A stretch of 64,000 bases of DNA from an uncultured Syntrophaceae bacterium (GTDB taxonomy: Bacteria; Desulfobacterota; Syntrophia; Syntrophales; UBA2192), in the NCBI GenBank assembly GCA_964628025.1, contig CAZVLL010000012.1, positions 12,784 to 76,783 on the forward strand, written 5' to 3'. Of this stretch, positions 42,249-49,060 are shown piece after piece (position 1 is the stretch's first letter; every line of letters starts with the position of its first letter). The notes under the pieces were generated by a model. The model was not told the origin of the DNA. It saw only the letters and a list, made by a program, of their open reading frames with translations, and ran no database searches. The translations under genes and the position numbers were made by a program.

Positions 42249-43157
42249 ATGAAGCGGGAAAACAAACTTCTCCTGATATTATCTTTCAATGTAAGTCTCA
42301 TGATCCTGGAGATCATCGGGGGACTGATCAGCAACAGCCTAGCCCTCCTCAGCGATGCGGGGCACATGTTGACGGACTCGCTTGCTGTCTTTCTCAGCTA
42401 CATGGCCATCCACTGGACCCGGAAACCGGCGGACCACCGGAAGACGTTCGGCTATCACCGCGCCGAGATCCTCGTCGCCCTGGCCAACGGTGTCGCCCTG
42501 CTCGTCATCGCCGGGTACATCTTCTACGAGGCTGTCCAGCGATTTTTCAGCCCCCAGGAGATCCGGACGGGCGTCCTCCTGGCCATCGCGACCATCGGCC
42601 TGGCGGGGAATCTTTTCGGGCTCTTCATCCTGAGAGGGGAGAGCCATGACAACCTCAATATCCGGAGTGCCTTCTTCCACATCTTGGCCGATACGCTGTC
42701 TTCGGTGGGGGTCATCGTCGGTGGTGTCATCATCTGGTTCACCGGCTGGTATCTCGTCGACTCACTCGTCGGCGTGCTCATCGGGGGCATCGTGCTGAGG
42801 GGTGCCGTCGAACTGATCCGGGAGTCGGGCGAAATCCTGCTCGAGGCCACACCCCGCGACATCGATATTGCGGAGTTACGGCAGGAGGTCGAAAAAATCC
42901 CCGGCGTGAAGGGCCTGCACGACGTCCATATCTGGACGATTGGCTCCGGCCTGCGGGCGCTCAGTGCCCACGTGCTCACCGATGACATCACGACAAGAGA
43001 GAGTCAGGAGATCGCCTGTCTTGTCCGGGCCGTCCTGGGCGGGAAGTACAACATTACCCACACAACCCTCGAAGTGGAGTGCGAGAGTTGCATGGACCGG
43101 GCATGTGACATGATTCTGACCGAGAAGGATTTGGACAACATGCGACCTCGGGGCTAG
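42249..43157 (+). CDS. czcD: Cation diffusion facilitator (CzcD/ZitB-like Zn/Co/Cd efflux)
   Basis: SLALLSDAGHMLTD, TFGYHRAE, LNIRSAFFHILAD, HDVHIW, HTTLEVE. Confidence 0.92.
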   Translation: MKRENKLLLILSFNVSLMILEIIGGLISNSLALLSDAGHMLTDSLAVFLSYMAIHWTRKPADHRKTFGYHRAEILVALANGVALLVIAGYIFYEAVQRFFSPQEIRTGVLLAIATIGLAGNLFGLFILRGESHDNLNIRSAFFHILADTLSSVGVIVGGVIIWFTGWYLVDSLVGVLIGGIVLRGAVELIRESGEILLEATPRDIDIAELRQEVEKIPGVKGLHDVHIWTIGSGLRALSAHVLTDDITTRESQEIACLVRAVLGGKYNITHTTLEVECESCMDRACDMILTEKDLDNMRPRG

Positions 43158-44101
43158 GGCCGGGCCTGCACGAGTTCGGCGAACCCCAGAAGGGTCTCGG
43201 CGTCTCCCACGTAGACCGGTCGAATGTCCTTTCGAATATTCTTGATGAGTCCGGACAGGACCCTCTTGGGGCCGATTTCAATTATGGTATCGATGCCCAT
43301 CTCCGCCATCTTTTCTACCGTTTCCTGCCAGCGGACCGGGGAGATGATCTGCTTTCTCAACAGCTCTGCGGCATTTTCCGTCGTGTAATAAAGGGAAGGG
43401 TCGCAATTGGGAATGACGGGGATTTCAAAGGGTTTGAAATGAACCTTGGCAAGGTCCTTGGTGAAGAGGTCGGACGCCCCCGTGAGCAGCCTCGAGTGGC
43501 AGGGGGCGCTGATCGGAAGGCGGACGACCAGTTTCGCTCCGATCTCTTTTGCGCGTTCCATGAGGCGTTCCACTGCGCCGGCATGACCGGAAACAACGGC
43601 CTGAATCGGGGCATTTAGATTTGCCAGATCGACGGGCTCGTTTTCCCGGGAGCACTCCCGAACGAGATCTTTCATTCGGTCCAGGGTGAGGCCGACGATA
43701 GCGGCCATGGCACTGAGACCCGGCGGCACGGCTTCCTCGTGGTGTTTCGCCCTCGCATGGACAAGGCGCAGCACATCATCCAGTTCCAGTGCCCCCGAGG
43801 CGTAAATGGCGCTGAACTCGCCCAGGCTGTGACCCGCGATGACCGCAGGGTGCAGGACGTCGAGTTCCCTTACGGTCTCGAAGACGGCAATCTCAAACGA
43901 GAGGACGGCAAGCTGTGTGTTGACGGACTGGTCAAGGACCTCTTTAGGCCCTTCCAGGCACAGAGACAGGATGTCCCTGCCAAGGATCTCCCGGGCCCGA
44001 TCAAATATTTTTCTGAAGGGTTTGTGCAGATCGCAGAGATCTTTCCCCATTCCCACGAACTGGGAGCCCTGCCCGGGAAAAACAAGACCAATCCTGCCCA
44101 T
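43154..44101 (-). CDS. fabD: Malonyl-CoA:ACP transacylase
   Basis: FPGQGSQ, catalytic GHSLGE, conserved Arg (VHARA), APCHS, PVRWQETV, EIGP..VLSGL. Confidence 0.95.
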   Translation of the reverse strand: MGRIGLVFPGQGSQFVGMGKDLCDLHKPFRKIFDRAREILGRDILSLCLEGPKEVLDQSVNTQLAVLSFEIAVFETVRELDVLHPAVIAGHSLGEFSAIYASGALELDDVLRLVHARAKHHEEAVPPGLSAMAAIVGLTLDRMKDLVRECSRENEPVDLANLNAPIQAVVSGHAGAVERLMERAKEIGAKLVVRLPISAPCHSRLLTGASDLFTKDLAKVHFKPFEIPVIPNCDPSLYYTTENAAELLRKQIISPVRWQETVEKMAEMGIDTIIEIGPKRVLSGLIKNIRKDIRPVYVGDAETLLGFAELVQARP

Positions 44102-44110
44102 ACGAAACCT

Positions 44111-45757
44111 TCAACTTTCCATTACGTAGGATCCCGGCGCTTCTTCGAGGGCCGGGTACTTCCGGGATCCCATCGGGGGAGGTTTCCCCGGCGACAGGCT
44201 TCTCTCGCGCATCCATTCCGTCCAATCCTCCCACCAGGATCCCCTTTTTTCTTCCTGACGGCCCAGCCACCGATCGGCATCCGTCTCACCGCCGGCCTCG
44301 CCGGCCCAGAACTTTCTTCTTGAGGTCTCCGACGGTGGATTCACAATACCTGTGATGTGGCCTTCACTCGACAGGGCATACCGTACGGGGCCGTCGATTC
44401 GATCGCACACCTTAAATGTGCCTTTCCAGGGGCAGATGTGATCGAGTTGGGTTCCAACCGCATAAAGCGGCTGGCGGATACGGCCGAGGTCGATGGGGCG
44501 GTCCCCGAGGTGAAGGGCATCCTTCTCCACCAGCTTGTTGTTCAGATAGAATTCCCGGAGGTAAAAGGAGCACATCGCTTCCGGCAGGCGGGTGCTGTCA
44601 TTGTTCCAGAACAATAGATCCGATTTCGGCGGAGACATGCCGTTGAGAACACCGTTGGTGAAATTGCGCCAGATCAGGCTGTCCGACCCGAGAAGACGGA
44701 ACACGAGCTGGATGTACTTTTCGCTGAGAAACCCTTCCGTTTTCATCATCGCTTCTACCAGTTCGACGGATTGCTGGGTCAGGAGAAACCCGATATCCCC
44801 CGGCTCGGAAAAATCCACGAGGGAAGAGAAAAGGGACCAGTCCGCTACGGGAAACGGCTGCGTATTTCCTTGCGATTCGTAATTCAGCCAGGCCATGAGG
44901 GCCGAGAGGGCCGTTCCCCCGATGCAGTACCCCGCCGCGTGGACCGGCGCACCCCCGCAGATGGAACTGGAAACCTGGATGGCCTGCAGGGCGCCTCGAA
45001 GCATGTAGTCATCGAAAGTCACGGCGCGCATGTGGGAATCGGGGTTTTTCCAGCTGATGATGAACACGGTGAACCCCCGATCCCGCAAATGGCGGACAAA
45101 ACTCATCGGGGGCGTGAGATCGAAAATGTAGTACTTGTTGATCCAGGGCTGGATGAACACGACGGGGACGGCGTATGTCGTGTCGGTTGTCGGCGCATAC
45201 TGAATGAGTTCCATGAGATCATTGCGGAATACAACGCTACCCGGGCTGGTAGCAATGTTACTGCCCACCTTGAATGCCTGGACATCGACCATCCGCATTA
45301 AAAAATTGCCTTCCAGAAGATCCTCTGTCCAGTACTTAAGCCCCTGGGACAGGCTTTCCCCATTGCTGTCCATGAAGCGCTGCACGGCGCCAGGATTTGT
45401 CCAGAAGAAATTGGAGGGCGAAAGGCTGTTGGTGACCTGGCGGGTCCAGAAACGCATCCGTTCCCGCTGCCGCTCGTGAAGCCCCGGCGCCTGCTCGATG
45501 AGATCGCTCAGCCATTCCTGGTAAATGGAGTGATGCCGCCGGGCCAACTGAGCGCCTGACTTCAGCGTATCGAAAAAGTCCGGCTTTCGGGGTTCCGGAA
45601 CCGCTTCCCCGATACCCAGGCACTGCTTCAACGCTTCCATTGTCGCTTCCTGAAGCTTCAACGACAAGGTTGCCTGCTTGCGCGCCAGCTCCAGCGGGCG
45701 ATCCTGCCAGGCGTGCTGCACATCCGTCAGTGCAGAGAAGACTCCGAAGAGGTCCAT
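44111..45757 (-). CDS. phaC: Polyhydroxyalkanoate synthase (class I/II-type single subunit)
   Basis: SPSNF..TNP, G.NIATSPG.VVFRNDLMELIQY, INKYYIFDL, lipase box GYCIGG, LDHICPW (Asp), GHITGIVNPP (His), SWW.DW..W, APGSYV. Confidence 0.95.
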   Translation of the reverse strand: MDLFGVFSALTDVQHAWQDRPLELARKQATLSLKLQEATMEALKQCLGIGEAVPEPRKPDFFDTLKSGAQLARRHHSIYQEWLSDLIEQAPGLHERQRERMRFWTRQVTNSLSPSNFFWTNPGAVQRFMDSNGESLSQGLKYWTEDLLEGNFLMRMVDVQAFKVGSNIATSPGSVVFRNDLMELIQYAPTTDTTYAVPVVFIQPWINKYYIFDLTPPMSFVRHLRDRGFTVFIISWKNPDSHMRAVTFDDYMLRGALQAIQVSSSICGGAPVHAAGYCIGGTALSALMAWLNYESQGNTQPFPVADWSLFSSLVDFSEPGDIGFLLTQQSVELVEAMMKTEGFLSEKYIQLVFRLLGSDSLIWRNFTNGVLNGMSPPKSDLLFWNNDSTRLPEAMCSFYLREFYLNNKLVEKDALHLGDRPIDLGRIRQPLYAVGTQLDHICPWKGTFKVCDRIDGPVRYALSSEGHITGIVNPPSETSRRKFWAGEAGGETDADRWLGRQEEKRGSWWEDWTEWMRERSLSPGKPPPMGSRKYPALEEAPGSYVMES

Positions 45758-45778
45758 GGTTCGTGTCCTGTTTTCCGG

Positions 45779-46024
45779 TCAGTTCTTCTTGACGTATCTT
45801 CCGATATAGGCCGCCAGCTCCCCCAGGGGCATCTCCGCGCTCAGCATGTCGAGGGACACCTTGAGGGGGAAATTCTCCTCCAGGAAGGTCTGGAGATTAA
45901 CGGCCGCCATGGAATCATAGTTGGGAATCGCTCCCAGGCACATCTCCGCCGTAATTGGTGCCTTCCCGATCTCGGGAAAGAGATCAAGGATGCCGTACCT
46001 GATCTTTTCCATAATCTCGTTCAT
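45779..46024 (-). CDS. Dedicated acyl carrier protein
   Basis: 81 aa acidic protein; IPNYDSMAAVNL with Ser38 as phosphopantetheine site; differs from the housekeeping AcpP GADSLD motif. Confidence 0.88.
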   Translation of the reverse strand: MNEIMEKIRYGILDLFPEIGKAPITAEMCLGAIPNYDSMAAVNLQTFLEENFPLKVSLDMLSAEMPLGELAAYIGRYVKKN

Positions 46025-46058
46025 TGGTTCGCTTCTCCTTTTTCATCCAGGGAATGGG

Positions 46059-47039
46059 TCAGAGTCGAATCAGGTTTGCCCCCCAGGAAAGTCCCCCGCC
46101 GAATGTGGCAATCACGACAAGGTCCCCCTGCACCAGGCACCCCTGGGAGATCGCCTCGTCCAGTGCGATGAGGACCGACGCGCTGGCCGTATTCCCGTAA
46201 CGGTCCAGATTGACGAAAAATCGCTCCCTCGGTATCCCGAGCAGTCCGGCAATCCCGTGAAGAATGTTGATGTTAGCCTGGTGGCAGATGAAACACTTCA
46301 CATCGTCCGCTGCCACACCGGCCTCCTCGAGCAGACGGAGAATGATCTTCGGTCCCTTGTCCATCGTGAAGGCAAAGACCTCTTCGCCCTTCATCCGAAA
46401 AAAGGCCGATCGGGGGCCGGGCATCTTCTCGAAGGGCATCATCGTCCCGCCGCCGGGGACACAGATGGTGTCGTTTCCGCTGCCGTCAGTTCCCAGGCAG
46501 GAATGCAGGACACCCCTTGCGCCGTCCGGTTCCGCCTGGAAAAGAATCGCACCGGCGCCGTCTCCAAAGAATGGGTACGTCGAGAAATCCTTGCTATTCA
46601 GGATTTTCGAGTACATCTCGGCGGCAATAAAGAGGATTGTGCGATAATTTCCCGACCGGATCAGGGAGTCGACGACAGCAATGCCGAAGGAGCCGCCGGA
46701 GCAGACGGAATTGATATCGAAGGCGAAGGCGTTTCTTGCCCCCAACTCGTTTTGTACGCGTGTGGCCGTGGCAGGCTGCATGCGGTCCGGCGATGAGGTG
46801 GAAAGGAGGATGCCTTCAATGTTATCCGGCGAGAATTCGACTTTTTGCAAACACCTGCGGGCGGCGGCGATGGCCAGGTCGGAGGTGCACTCCGATTCAG
46901 CGGCGTGCCGTCTCGTCCGAACCCCTGTTTTTTCTGCGATCAGTTTGCGGGCTTCCGGCGAAAACTGCGAGAGGTCCTCGTTTGATATGACCCGGTCGGG
47001 AAGAAAACTGCCAGTGGAAAGGATGCCGGCTCTTTGCAT
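46059..47039 (-). CDS. fabH: 3-oxoacyl-ACP synthase III
   Basis: KTGVRTRR, triad Cys (NSVCSG), His (CHQAN), Asn (YGNTASAS), FGDGAGA, FGGGLSWG. Confidence 0.95.
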   Translation of the reverse strand: MQRAGILSTGSFLPDRVISNEDLSQFSPEARKLIAEKTGVRTRRHAAESECTSDLAIAAARRCLQKVEFSPDNIEGILLSTSSPDRMQPATATRVQNELGARNAFAFDINSVCSGGSFGIAVVDSLIRSGNYRTILFIAAEMYSKILNSKDFSTYPFFGDGAGAILFQAEPDGARGVLHSCLGTDGSGNDTICVPGGGTMMPFEKMPGPRSAFFRMKGEEVFAFTMDKGPKIILRLLEEAGVAADDVKCFICHQANINILHGIAGLLGIPRERFFVNLDRYGNTASASVLIALDEAISQGCLVQGDLVVIATFGGGLSWGANLIRL

Positions 47040-47154: not shown

Positions 47155-47261
47155 GCCTTGCGACATCCGGGGAGGTGTGTTTCATTGATTGAATCGCGGG
47201 GAAACGAAGATGAGATTCAAAGGAAAGCACATCTATTGCAATGATAGCAGAACCATTGTGC

Positions 47262-47501
47262 TCAAGTCAATTGCCTTTCGGTCCAGAATTCGTATTCTTC
47301 ACCCCGGTCGTTGACGAGGACGGACGTCACGTCACCGAATCTCAGCTTGATGTGCTTTCCCTCGAACTCGTATCCCCAGGGGCACCAGCCCTTCTTGGCG
47401 TCGAGAACCCATTGCTCACCGCTTGCGCGTTCCACGATCAGCTCCCCCGTGTGAAGGTCTTCGACGAGGAGCGCTTCCTCCAGGGCCTGTTTGTCTTCCA
47501 T
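47262..47501 (-). CDS. Hypothetical small acidic protein
   Basis: MEDKQALEEALLVEDLHTGELIVERASGEQW...; plausible codon usage; follows the disulfide reductase gene. Confidence 0.6.
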   Translation of the reverse strand: MEDKQALEEALLVEDLHTGELIVERASGEQWVLDAKKGWCPWGYEFEGKHIKLRFGDVTSVLVNDRGEEYEFWTERQLT

Positions 47502-47572
47502 TGGCGGATTCTCCGAAACAAATTTCCCTTGGTGACAGGGCCCCCTTCGGTTAAACGAAAAAGCAGGGGCGG

Positions 47573-49036
47573 TCAAGATGAAACCCGATCCATCTCGCAG
47601 GCCCTTCCCCTCAGGTTAAAAAATAGCTTGAGTCCCTTTTTTACCGGTTCAGAGAACAGCTTGGTGGACAGGAACGTCCCGGCCACTCTCTTGTTGATTT
47701 CCCCCAGAGTGGGATAGGGGTGCACGGCCGCGGCCAGTGTCGAAAGCCCCATTTTGCCGTTCATGACGGCGACCCATTCCGCGATGAGATCGCCCGCCCT
47801 GTGTCCCAGGATCTGTACACCAATCGGCATTTCTTTTTCGTCGAGGAGCATCTTGATTTTGCCGGATGCTTCCCTTTCGGCAAGTGCCCGGTCGTTATCG
47901 CGGAAGTTCTCAACCCAGACACTGTACCGGATCCCTGCTTCCATCGCACCCTTTTCATTCATGCCGATGCTTGCAAGCTCCGGATCGGTGTAGGTGCACC
48001 AGGGAAGGTACGTATAGTCGATCTTCCGGGGAAGGCGGAAAACGGCATTGGTTACGACAACGCCCCCTTCGTGACCGGCGGCATGGGTGAACTGGTATCC
48101 TCCGGTAACATCCCCGGCCCCATAGATGTGTTTTTGCGTGGTCCGGAGCCTGTCATCGAGTCTGAGGCCCCGGCCGTCAAACTCGACGCCGACACCTTCC
48201 AGGCCGAGTCCCTCAAGATTGGCCTTCCGTCCCGCAGCGACGAGGATCGTCTCGGTACGCAAGGTTTCTATTGCGCCGCCGATGGAGAGCAGAACCTCCC
48301 GCTCGCTTCCAAGATCGGTTACCCCCATGATTGCGGCATTGAGGTGGAACCGAACTCCCTCGGTCTGCAGGGTAGCCATGACCTGATCGGCCATGTCTTT
48401 GTCCTCCTTCGGGAGGATAGCAGCGCCCAGCTCGATGACCGTTACGGTCGTGCCGAGGCGGTTGAAGGCCTGCCCCATCTCGATGCCGATGGGTCCTCCG
48501 CCGATGATGATCATCGATTTCGGGAGGCGGTCGAGGGCGAAGATGTCCCGGTTGGTGAGGCAGGACGCATTTTCAAGACCCGGGATCGACGGGATGGCCG
48601 GGGAGGATCCCGATGCGATGACCCAGCTCTTCGCGGTAACGGGGGTGCCGTCGAGACTCACACGGTGATTGCCGATAAAAACAGGATTCCCGAAGTCCAC
48701 ACGAGCGCCGAGCCCGCAGAATCGCTCCACTGAATCGTGCCTCTGGATCGTACCGATGACGGATCGGATACGGTCTCTGACCCTTGCAAAGTCAACAGGC
48801 TTTACGTCTACCTCGGGGAGGCCGTAGGCCTTCGCATTTTTCGTCTGGTGATAGACTCTGGCCGCTTTGATCAGGGTTTTGCTCGGTACGCATCCAAAAT
48901 GGAGGCAGTCGCCCCCCAGCTCTTTTTCTTTTTCGATGAGAAGGGTCTTCGCCCCGAGCCGGGCTGCCCCTGCAGCGACGGTGAGTCCCGCCGATCCTCC
49001 ACCGATGATGCCGATGTCAAAGTCGTACGCTGGCAT
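47573..49036 (-). CDS. Class I pyridine nucleotide-disulfide oxidoreductase (MerA/E3-like, no C-terminal Cys pair)
   Basis: GGGSAG, GGDCLHFGCVPSK redox dithiol, GGGPIGIE, YGAGDV, HPYPTLGE. Confidence 0.92.
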   Translation of the reverse strand: MPAYDFDIGIIGGGSAGLTVAAGAARLGAKTLLIEKEKELGGDCLHFGCVPSKTLIKAARVYHQTKNAKAYGLPEVDVKPVDFARVRDRIRSVIGTIQRHDSVERFCGLGARVDFGNPVFIGNHRVSLDGTPVTAKSWVIASGSSPAIPSIPGLENASCLTNRDIFALDRLPKSMIIIGGGPIGIEMGQAFNRLGTTVTVIELGAAILPKEDKDMADQVMATLQTEGVRFHLNAAIMGVTDLGSEREVLLSIGGAIETLRTETILVAAGRKANLEGLGLEGVGVEFDGRGLRLDDRLRTTQKHIYGAGDVTGGYQFTHAAGHEGGVVVTNAVFRLPRKIDYTYLPWCTYTDPELASIGMNEKGAMEAGIRYSVWVENFRDNDRALAEREASGKIKMLLDEKEMPIGVQILGHRAGDLIAEWVAVMNGKMGLSTLAAAVHPYPTLGEINKRVAGTFLSTKLFSEPVKKGLKLFFNLRGRACEMDRVSS

Positions 49037-49060
49037 GAGAGAACCTTGCAATTTCGTTAC

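Follow-up and report, generated by a model that had tools for sequence, protein, structure and literature searches.

How does a polyhydroxyalkanoate (PHA) synthase obtain its monomers when its gene stands between those of a small acyl carrier protein (ACP) and a FabD? The question is raised by a stretch of 64,000 nucleotides (the window) from an uncultured Syntrophaceae bacterium (NCBI GenBank assembly GCA_964628025.1, contig CAZVLL010000012.1, positions 12,784 to 76,783), in which positions 43154-47039 of the minus strand hold four co-oriented open reading frames (ORFs) in the order fabH-acp-phaC-fabD (Table 1). An earlier reading made from the letters alone (the sequence-only reading) had described a dedicated FabH-ACP-FabD module around PhaC, with all catalytic residues intact and no further PHA gene or reductase adjacent, and had named synteny in relatives, a PhaC phylogeny and pha genes elsewhere in the genome as points to be checked. 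The intergenic gaps, re-read directly from the sequence, are indeed 34, 21 and 9 nt, the catalytic residues of FabH, FabD, PhaC and the ACP were confirmed in alignments and translations, and no further pha gene or reductase was found within ~7 kb of the cassette. The analysis described below makes it probable, on balance, that the cassette provides its PHA synthase with a private, malonyl-ACP-driven monomer supply that would be independent of thiolase.

Conservation of the cassette and phylogeny of PhaC

All four proteins were scanned for in 80 genome loci from a clade-profile search and in additional look-up loci. Relatives of the PhaC number in the thousands; among the best 120, which stem from metagenome bins of Syntrophales, Syntrophobacteraceae and Desulfobacterales, identity ranges over 49-98%. 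In every locus with a PhaC of at least 51% identity and with flanking sequence available, fabH and acp lie directly upstream of phaC, and in most loci the end of acp either overlaps the beginning of phaC or precedes it by 0-12 nt; the hosts are Syntrophales, Syntrophobacteraceae and Desulfobacterales. No fabH, acp or fabD was found alongside phaC in ~70 loci with a PhaC of at most 49% identity (Betaproteobacteria, Alphaproteobacteria and others). The cassette was considered a conserved unit because its flanking genes differ between lineages, being ribosomal genes, pta-ackA, a protease or glyoxylate-cycle genes. The cassette-linked enzymes group in one clade (SH-aLRT 100, stem 0.44) of a tree of 82 PhaCs, the sister of which is a betaproteobacterial clade without the cassette. 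The sequence-only reading is supported in that the genes make up a conserved functional unit, beyond chance neighbourhood.

The gene content downstream of phaC varies. In most Syntrophales fabD follows phaC, and in one Syntrophaceae genome a short-chain dehydrogenase/reductase (SDR) scoring 306.9 against the 3-ketoacyl-ACP reductase model NF006072 (cut-off 298) lies between the two. An SDR of the same best family takes the place of fabD in Syntrophobacteraceae, where it is preceded in most loci by an ORF of 88-89 aa, and one Syntrophales family has fabH-acp-phaC alone. Of three new look-ups starting from the ACP, two fell in cassettes (pta-ackA-fabH-acp-phaC-fabD and, in Syntrophobacter sp. 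SbD1, fabH-acp-phaC-89aa-SDR) and one did not. In anaerobic digesters a close relative of the cassette, with an ACP of 86% identity listed in 182 index blocks, is abundant. The 88-aa ORF had no match in NCBIfam or Pfam; it is 34% identical (1e-14) to two small ORFs just upstream of the class III phaE-phaC of the genome studied here, and it and these class III-linked ORFs are probably phasins, judging by this similarity. The conserved core is KAS III (3-ketoacyl-ACP synthase III, the fabH product), ACP and PhaC, with a ketoreductase, FabD and a granule-protein candidate recruited lineage by lineage. As predicted from their sequences, core and recruited genes together are the full parts list for a path from malonyl-ACP through 3-ketoacyl-ACP and 3-hydroxyacyl-ACP to polyester.

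Identification of the carrier protein

The Pfam model PF00550 gave E=0.04 and 14.6 bits on the 81-aa ORF, below the cut-off of 20.8. A profile built from 11 ACP orthologues matched solved ACPs with E-values down to 5e-8, and alignment of these orthologues with the genome's own AcpP showed Asp37-Ser38 to be invariant. An AlphaFold2 model of the 81-aa protein (predicted local distance difference test score 87.6) has the helices of an ACP with Ser38 at the N-terminus of helix II, and in a Foldseek search against the Protein Data Bank (PDB) all 50 of the top 50 matches were carrier proteins, either ACPs or peptidyl carrier proteins, with template modelling scores of ~0.7-0.8. By profile and model, the 81-aa protein is assigned as a genuine ACP and is predicted to be phosphopantetheinylated; the genome has two phosphopantetheinyl transferase (PPTase) genes (C6:111680 and C13:12917), neither within the cassette.

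The cassette ACPs are acidic (isoelectric points of 4.0-4.6) and share the motif IP-x-[FWY]-DSM-x-x-VN, so that of the 'YDSM' motif singled out in the sequence-only reading the DSM is conserved, while the Tyr varies between Phe, Trp and Tyr. Where helix II of AcpP has Asp38, Glu41 and Glu49, the private ACP carries Ala, Asn and Asn, and Asn43 is invariant. The family is small, since of 5.8 billion proteins 297 match at E<=1e-5; its members are annotated as ACPs by their sources, lie mostly on the same contigs as members of the PhaC clade and belong to Syntrophales, Syntrophobacteraceae and Desulfococcaceae.

A dedicated FabH

FabH scored above the cut-off of NF006829 (320.3 bits, cut-off 249) and just under that of TIGR00747 (286.1 bits, cut-off 292.1), and it retains Cys, His and Asn at the positions of E. 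coli C112, H244 and N274. In E. coli FabH, W32 and R151 are the residues which we take to sandwich the adenine of coenzyme A (CoA), and K214, R249 and K256/K257 reportedly form the patch that docks AcpP. The window FabH carries, in E. coli numbering, the changes W32L, R36K, F87Q, R151F, K214A, R249N and K256G/K257L, and all 11 of the 11 cassette FabHs have L32, K36, Q87, F/Y151 and N/H249, with non-basic residues at 214, 256 and 257. W32, R36, R151 and R249 are kept in three housekeeping FabHs of cassette-bearing relatives (from Syntrophobacteraceae and Desulfobacterales), in E. coli FabH and in the two closest solved FabHs (PDB 4dfe and 2ebd), and F87, K214 and K256/K257 are kept in these proteins too, where tabulated. 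The cassette FabHs are therefore without the CoA-adenine clamp and the basic ACP-docking patch by which a housekeeping-type FabH was recognised. The roles of the clamp and docking residues follow the E. coli FabH literature and PMC10054515.

In the genome studied here (2.75 Mb, 98.9% complete) one FabH lies above the family cut-off, the cassette copy. Cassette-free Syntrophales genomes, among them two closed ones and two from the same genus, are without a canonical FabH, and Syntrophobacteraceae and Desulfobacterales have a housekeeping FabH (~420 bits) besides that of the cassette. FabH is dedicated to the cassette, because cassette-free Syntrophales have no canonical housekeeping enzyme of this kind, and it would not be needed for growth, since its same-genus relatives that lack the cassette do without any canonical FabH. 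The assignment of the cassette FabH as a housekeeping gene was considered and rejected, given its absence from cassette-free Syntrophales and the separate housekeeping FabH of the other lineages; for FabD such an assignment holds in part.

FabD and the housekeeping genes of fatty-acid synthesis

FabD passed the cut-off of TIGR00128 (285.1 bits, cut-off 260.9), and its translation contains the nucleophile motif GHSLGE, the malonyl-binding Arg within 'LVHARAKH' and the catalytic His within 'APCHS'. It is the one FabD above the family cut-off in this genome. Relatives have a housekeeping locus of the order yceD-rpmF-fabD-fabG-acpP-fabF-rpiB; the genome's own housekeeping fabD, between rpmF and fabG, is a remnant of ~190 nt (C18:14014-14202; L008 8015-8203) that encodes 'MAGHCLGEY...' (MAGHCLGEYGALCAAGVLSFADAP...), with the active-site nucleophile changed from Ser to Cys. 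A same-genus genome has an intact fabD at this position, and the housekeeping FabD of the genus and the FabD of the cassette share 47% identity. Four Syntrophus-like cassette genomes (L110-L113; G019, G002, G003 and G009) have lost the housekeeping fabD together with most or all of fabG, and their eroded locus reads yceD-rpmF-(C-terminal fabG fragment or nothing)-acpP-fabF-rpiB. Because the housekeeping fabD is a remnant and the cassette FabD is the only canonical one, FabD does not appear to be private to the cassette; in these genomes AcpP, too, is most likely charged by the cassette enzyme. The dedicated module of the sequence-only reading thus stands for FabH and the ACP, but not for FabD, which is also absent from several cassette variants.

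A second cluster resembling fatty-acid synthesis (FAS) genes, present in 22 of the 22 genomes checked, is located in this genome at C13:4400-13200 (L006) and encodes a FabD-like protein with an N-terminal extension, an acyl-CoA dehydrogenase, FabH-like, FabA-like, FabG-like, FabZ-like and FabF-like proteins, an ACP, an acyltransferase and a PPTase. Its FabH-like protein (~175 bits) is the only FabH-type protein in cassette-free Syntrophales. Its FabD-like protein, the only FabD of one closed cassette-free genome, may act as a substitute housekeeping FabD. The cluster may also initiate fatty-acid synthesis in Syntrophales, because these are without a canonical FabH and neither plsX nor fabH was found between rpmF and fabD in their housekeeping locus.

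The PHA synthase and its clade-specific residues

PhaC matched PhaC_N (PF07167) with 174 bits and aligned over residues 85-545 to PDB 9knj with 340 bits, solved class I PhaCs scoring 290-340 bits. Its catalytic triad, its PhaC_N domain and its length, close to the ~550-600 aa of single-subunit enzymes, are those of class I, but its score against the class I model TIGR01838 (513.3 bits) is under the cut-off of 622.65.

Residues were compared between 128 members of the cassette clade and 71 other PhaCs, with GYC278IGG, D439 and H467 invariant throughout both sets. Position 379 is Ser in all 128 clade members and Phe in 69 of the 71 others; it corresponds to F420 of C. necator and F387 of Chromobacterium, at the junction of the lid and alpha-C and at the dimer interface. 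Lys/Arg replaces Pro/Ala at 378, and Arg replaces Ser/His/Pro at 364. Near the active site the clade has Glu/Asp for Ser at 465, two residues before the catalytic His, Thr for Ala/Leu at 469 (C. necator A510) and Cys/Ser for Ala at 442 (Chromobacterium V450, a pantetheine contact). Acidic residues have been lost at 327 and 438 (E/D to L/Q at the latter), and basic residues gained at 74, 420 and 482. The lid, dimer-interface and pantetheine-contact roles follow the Chromobacterium PhaC-CoA complex (PMC7214940). These changes would fit an altered substrate delivery, possibly by way of a basic docking surface for the acidic ACP, and are suggestive only. The CoA-adenine pocket is kept (F212 and P216, equivalent to M225 and P229 of Chromobacterium), a feature that does not discriminate between use of ACP and of CoA.

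Other PHA genes in the genome and its relatives

The question of pha genes elsewhere, the third point to be checked, is answered: a class III phaE-phaC locus with a MaoC/PhaJ-like gene and four PhaA-like thiolases are present elsewhere in the genome. The class III locus, on contig 5 (C5:141400-151100; L007 3430-13082), comprises two phasin-like ORFs, a 527-aa hydrolase with a GFCQGG box, PhaE, a class III PhaC, a GAF protein, a MaoC/PhaJ-like hydratase, a methyltransferase and a 617-aa PhaC-like protein. Because the genome has this conventional CoA-type locus too, the cassette is best understood as a second synthase system, predicted to be differently fed. In another Syntrophales locus (L103; G064:C39:14000-24000), an AMP-dependent ligase, a FabH-like protein without the His and Asn of the triad, a DUF4147/MOFRL protein and a small ORF accompany an ordinary class I PhaC (37% identical). 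Neither this locus nor the gene surroundings of the sister PhaC clade (L026 and L028) were informative.

Proposed monomer supply and alternative explanations

From the gene content, its conservation, the identity of the carrier protein, the intact active sites and the clade-specific substitutions, all of which were observed, we infer each of the following chemical steps. FabD would charge the private ACP with malonate taken from malonyl-CoA, and the dedicated FabH would join the malonyl-ACP to a primer, either acetyl or another short acyl group, in a decarboxylative condensation that yields 3-ketoacyl-ACP. A 3-ketoacyl-ACP reductase, encoded within the cassette in some relatives and here acting in trans (for example the housekeeping FabG of contig 18), would yield (R)-3-hydroxyacyl-ACP, and the class-I-like PhaC would polymerise the (R)-3-hydroxyacyl monomer. 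The private ACP and the remodelled surface of FabH would keep this monomer pool apart from AcpP-based fatty-acid synthesis. For the last hand-over, PhaC would take the monomer either straight from the ACP, which is slightly favoured, or after transacylation to CoA. The claim that the PhaC clade polymerises (R)-3-hydroxyacyl units directly from the dedicated ACP is nevertheless advanced tentatively, and the wider proposal built on it, in which joint evolution of FabH, the ACP and the lid of PhaC would have produced an orthogonal channel, free of CoA, that leads from malonyl-ACP to PHA, is similarly doubtful.

Two of the alternatives concern the product and the carrier. The PhaC homologue might be an ACP-dependent ester-forming or release enzyme that turns a 3-keto or 3-hydroxy acid built by FabH and the ACP into an oligoester, an acylated metabolite or an unusual lipid. 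The long stem of the clade and its position under the class I cut-off (513 vs 622.65) would suit such an enzyme, as would the substitutions beside the catalytic His and Asp at positions that do not vary among other class I enzymes (S465E, A469T, A442C and E/D438L/Q) and the presence of a classical class III PHA synthase locus in the same genome. It is nonetheless considered unlikely, as PhaC keeps the full class I architecture with its N-terminal domain and catalytic triad, the nearest PhaCs outside the clade are ordinary proteobacterial class I enzymes, a phasin-like ORF stands beside the cassette in Syntrophobacteraceae, and no conserved tailoring, export or further biosynthetic genes adjoin the cassette. 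We consider quite unlikely an arrangement in which FabH is an NphT7-type acetoacetyl-CoA synthase joining acetyl-CoA and malonyl-CoA, PhaC works on CoA monomers, the ACP is a primer, anchor or regulator and FabD is merely co-located. This would agree with the absence from all cassette FabHs of the K214, R249 and K256/K257 basic patch, which reportedly docks AcpP (Zhang et al. 2001, J Biol Chem), with the CoA-adenine pocket kept in PhaC and with the cassette variants from which fabD is missing. However, FabH is also without the W32 and R151 CoA-adenine residues and so has no obvious advantage with CoA substrates. Moreover, no partner of phaC is linked to it more tightly than the ACP, whose Asp-Ser site is invariant, and the reductases found within cassettes belong to the 3-ketoacyl-ACP reductase type.

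The linkage might also be regulatory, with fabH and fabD serving general fatty-acid synthesis and co-transcribed with phaC, for example to balance lipid against storage carbon. FabH and FabD both score above family cut-offs, and the cassette FabD is the only canonical one here and in several Syntrophus-like genomes in which the housekeeping fabD, and in some also fabG, is eroded. This explanation is rated highly unlikely, however, in view of the same-genus cassette-free genomes without a canonical FabH, the separate housekeeping FabH (~420 bits) of Syntrophobacteraceae and Desulfobacterales, and the private ACP and lost AcpP-docking residues of FabH, which argue against work with AcpP.

A private, ACP-based monomer supply, the preferred explanation, also has several observations standing against it. 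The reduction of the keto to the hydroxy group, which the sequence-only reading had left to a FabG acting in trans, is represented by an SDR of the 3-ketoacyl-ACP reductase type in the cassettes of several lineages, but the window cassette has no reductase of its own. PhaC resembles an ordinary class I enzyme, and CoA thioesters remain plausible substrates because it combines this resemblance with a preserved hydrophobic CoA-adenine pocket; the loss of the basic docking residues could equally mean that FabH uses no ACP substrate. The cassette is patchy and accessory, being found in 9 of 61 Syntrophales genomes and in 4 of 24 families and absent from two same-genus genomes; among 401 genomes sampled evenly across the phylum, 4 had a PhaC of at least 54% identity. 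Comparison of the insertion site with that of a same-genus genome found non-syntenic flanks and no boundary of gain or loss. Finally, one homologue of the private ACP (45% identity) is encoded away from any cassette (L107 5001-5252). The gene immediately upstream of it specifies a protein that has Cyanophycin_syn and response-regulator domains.

Comparison with known systems

The cassette shares with the class I phaCAB operon of the Cupriavidus necator type a single-subunit PhaC of ~60 kDa with PhaC_N, a GxCxGG lipase box and a Cys-Asp-His triad. It differs in having no linked thiolase or acetoacetyl-CoA reductase, its partners being KAS III, ACP and FabD, and in that its PhaC, a member of a clade of its own marked by fixed changes in the lid and around the catalytic His, scores under the TIGR01838 cut-off. 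In the PhaG/FabG link to medium-chain-length PHA in pseudomonads, the monomers likewise arise as (R)-3-hydroxyacyl-ACP by type II FAS chemistry; pseudomonads, however, draw on the housekeeping AcpP pool and use PhaG (a thioesterase/transacylase), a CoA ligase and a class II PhaC, whereas the cassette has a private ACP, a dedicated FabH, no linked PhaG or ligase and a class-I-like PhaC. Engineered E. coli strains, either overexpressing FabH or FabD or feeding PhaC through the NphT7 acetoacetyl-CoA synthase, resemble the proposed route in their malonyl-driven, thiolase-independent C4 monomers for polyhydroxybutyrate, but these routes are artificial and end in CoA thioesters, in contrast to an operon that is natural, conserved and equipped with a private carrier protein. 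Priming modules of type II polyketide synthases and FAS also combine KAS III, a private ACP and a FabD-type acyltransferase, insulating a starter or short-chain pool from bulk FAS; there the downstream enzyme is a ketosynthase/chain-length factor elongation system, here a polyester synthase.

To our knowledge, the established natural PHA routes all deliver CoA thioesters, through PhaA/PhaB, PhaJ, or PhaG plus a ligase. The conserved coupling of a PHA synthase to a decarboxylative KAS III/ACP/FabD system would thus be a new monomer-supply route. The thiolase step is thermodynamically unfavourable; a malonyl-driven supply would be irreversible and independent of thiolase, and plausibly useful to syntrophs at low acetyl-CoA and energy. 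If PhaC does accept ACP-bound monomers, the assumed substrate scope of the PHA synthase family would change, the enzyme would be the first carrier-protein-dependent polyester synthase, and the four genes would offer a compact module for bioplastic engineering. As the sequence-only reading had supposed, no description of a fabH-acp-phaC(-fabD) operon was found in the open literature, subscription journals being outside its coverage.

Sequence features and neighbouring genes

The features of the cassette are listed in Table 1. A plausible ribosome-binding site precedes each of the four ORFs, and no terminator signal beyond chance level was found inside the cassette. Two sites resembling the sigma-70 consensus were found against 1.4 expected by chance, and the candidate promoter in Table 1 is to be read with that number.

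Table 1. Coordinates of the cassette genes and of the candidate promoter in the window
Feature	Position	Strand	Details
fabH, KAS III	46059..47039	-	326 aa; Cys-His-Asn triad intact; CoA-adenine and AcpP-docking residues replaced
Private acyl carrier protein	45779..46024	-	81 aa; phosphopantetheine-site Ser38 in DSM motif
phaC, class-I-like PHA synthase, distinct clade	44111..45757	-	548 aa; C278, D439, H467
fabD, malonyl-CoA:ACP transacylase	43154..44101	-	315 aa; sole canonical FabD left in genome
Candidate sigma-70-like promoter	47241..47270	-	TTGACT-18-TATCAT with upstream TG; ~200 nt upstream of fabH; consensus match only

A 158-aa ORF without a family match (47241-47717, plus strand) overlaps the 3' end of a gene on the opposite strand (47573-49051, minus strand) that encodes an FAD-dependent pyridine-nucleotide-disulfide oxidoreductase. 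The last 44 residues of the ORF are kept in a same-genus genome and may merely mirror the overlapping gene. The cassette is neighboured on one side by genes for CDF, Nramp and MgtE-like transporters and on the other by those for an FAD oxidoreductase, rpiA, pgi/tal and tkt.

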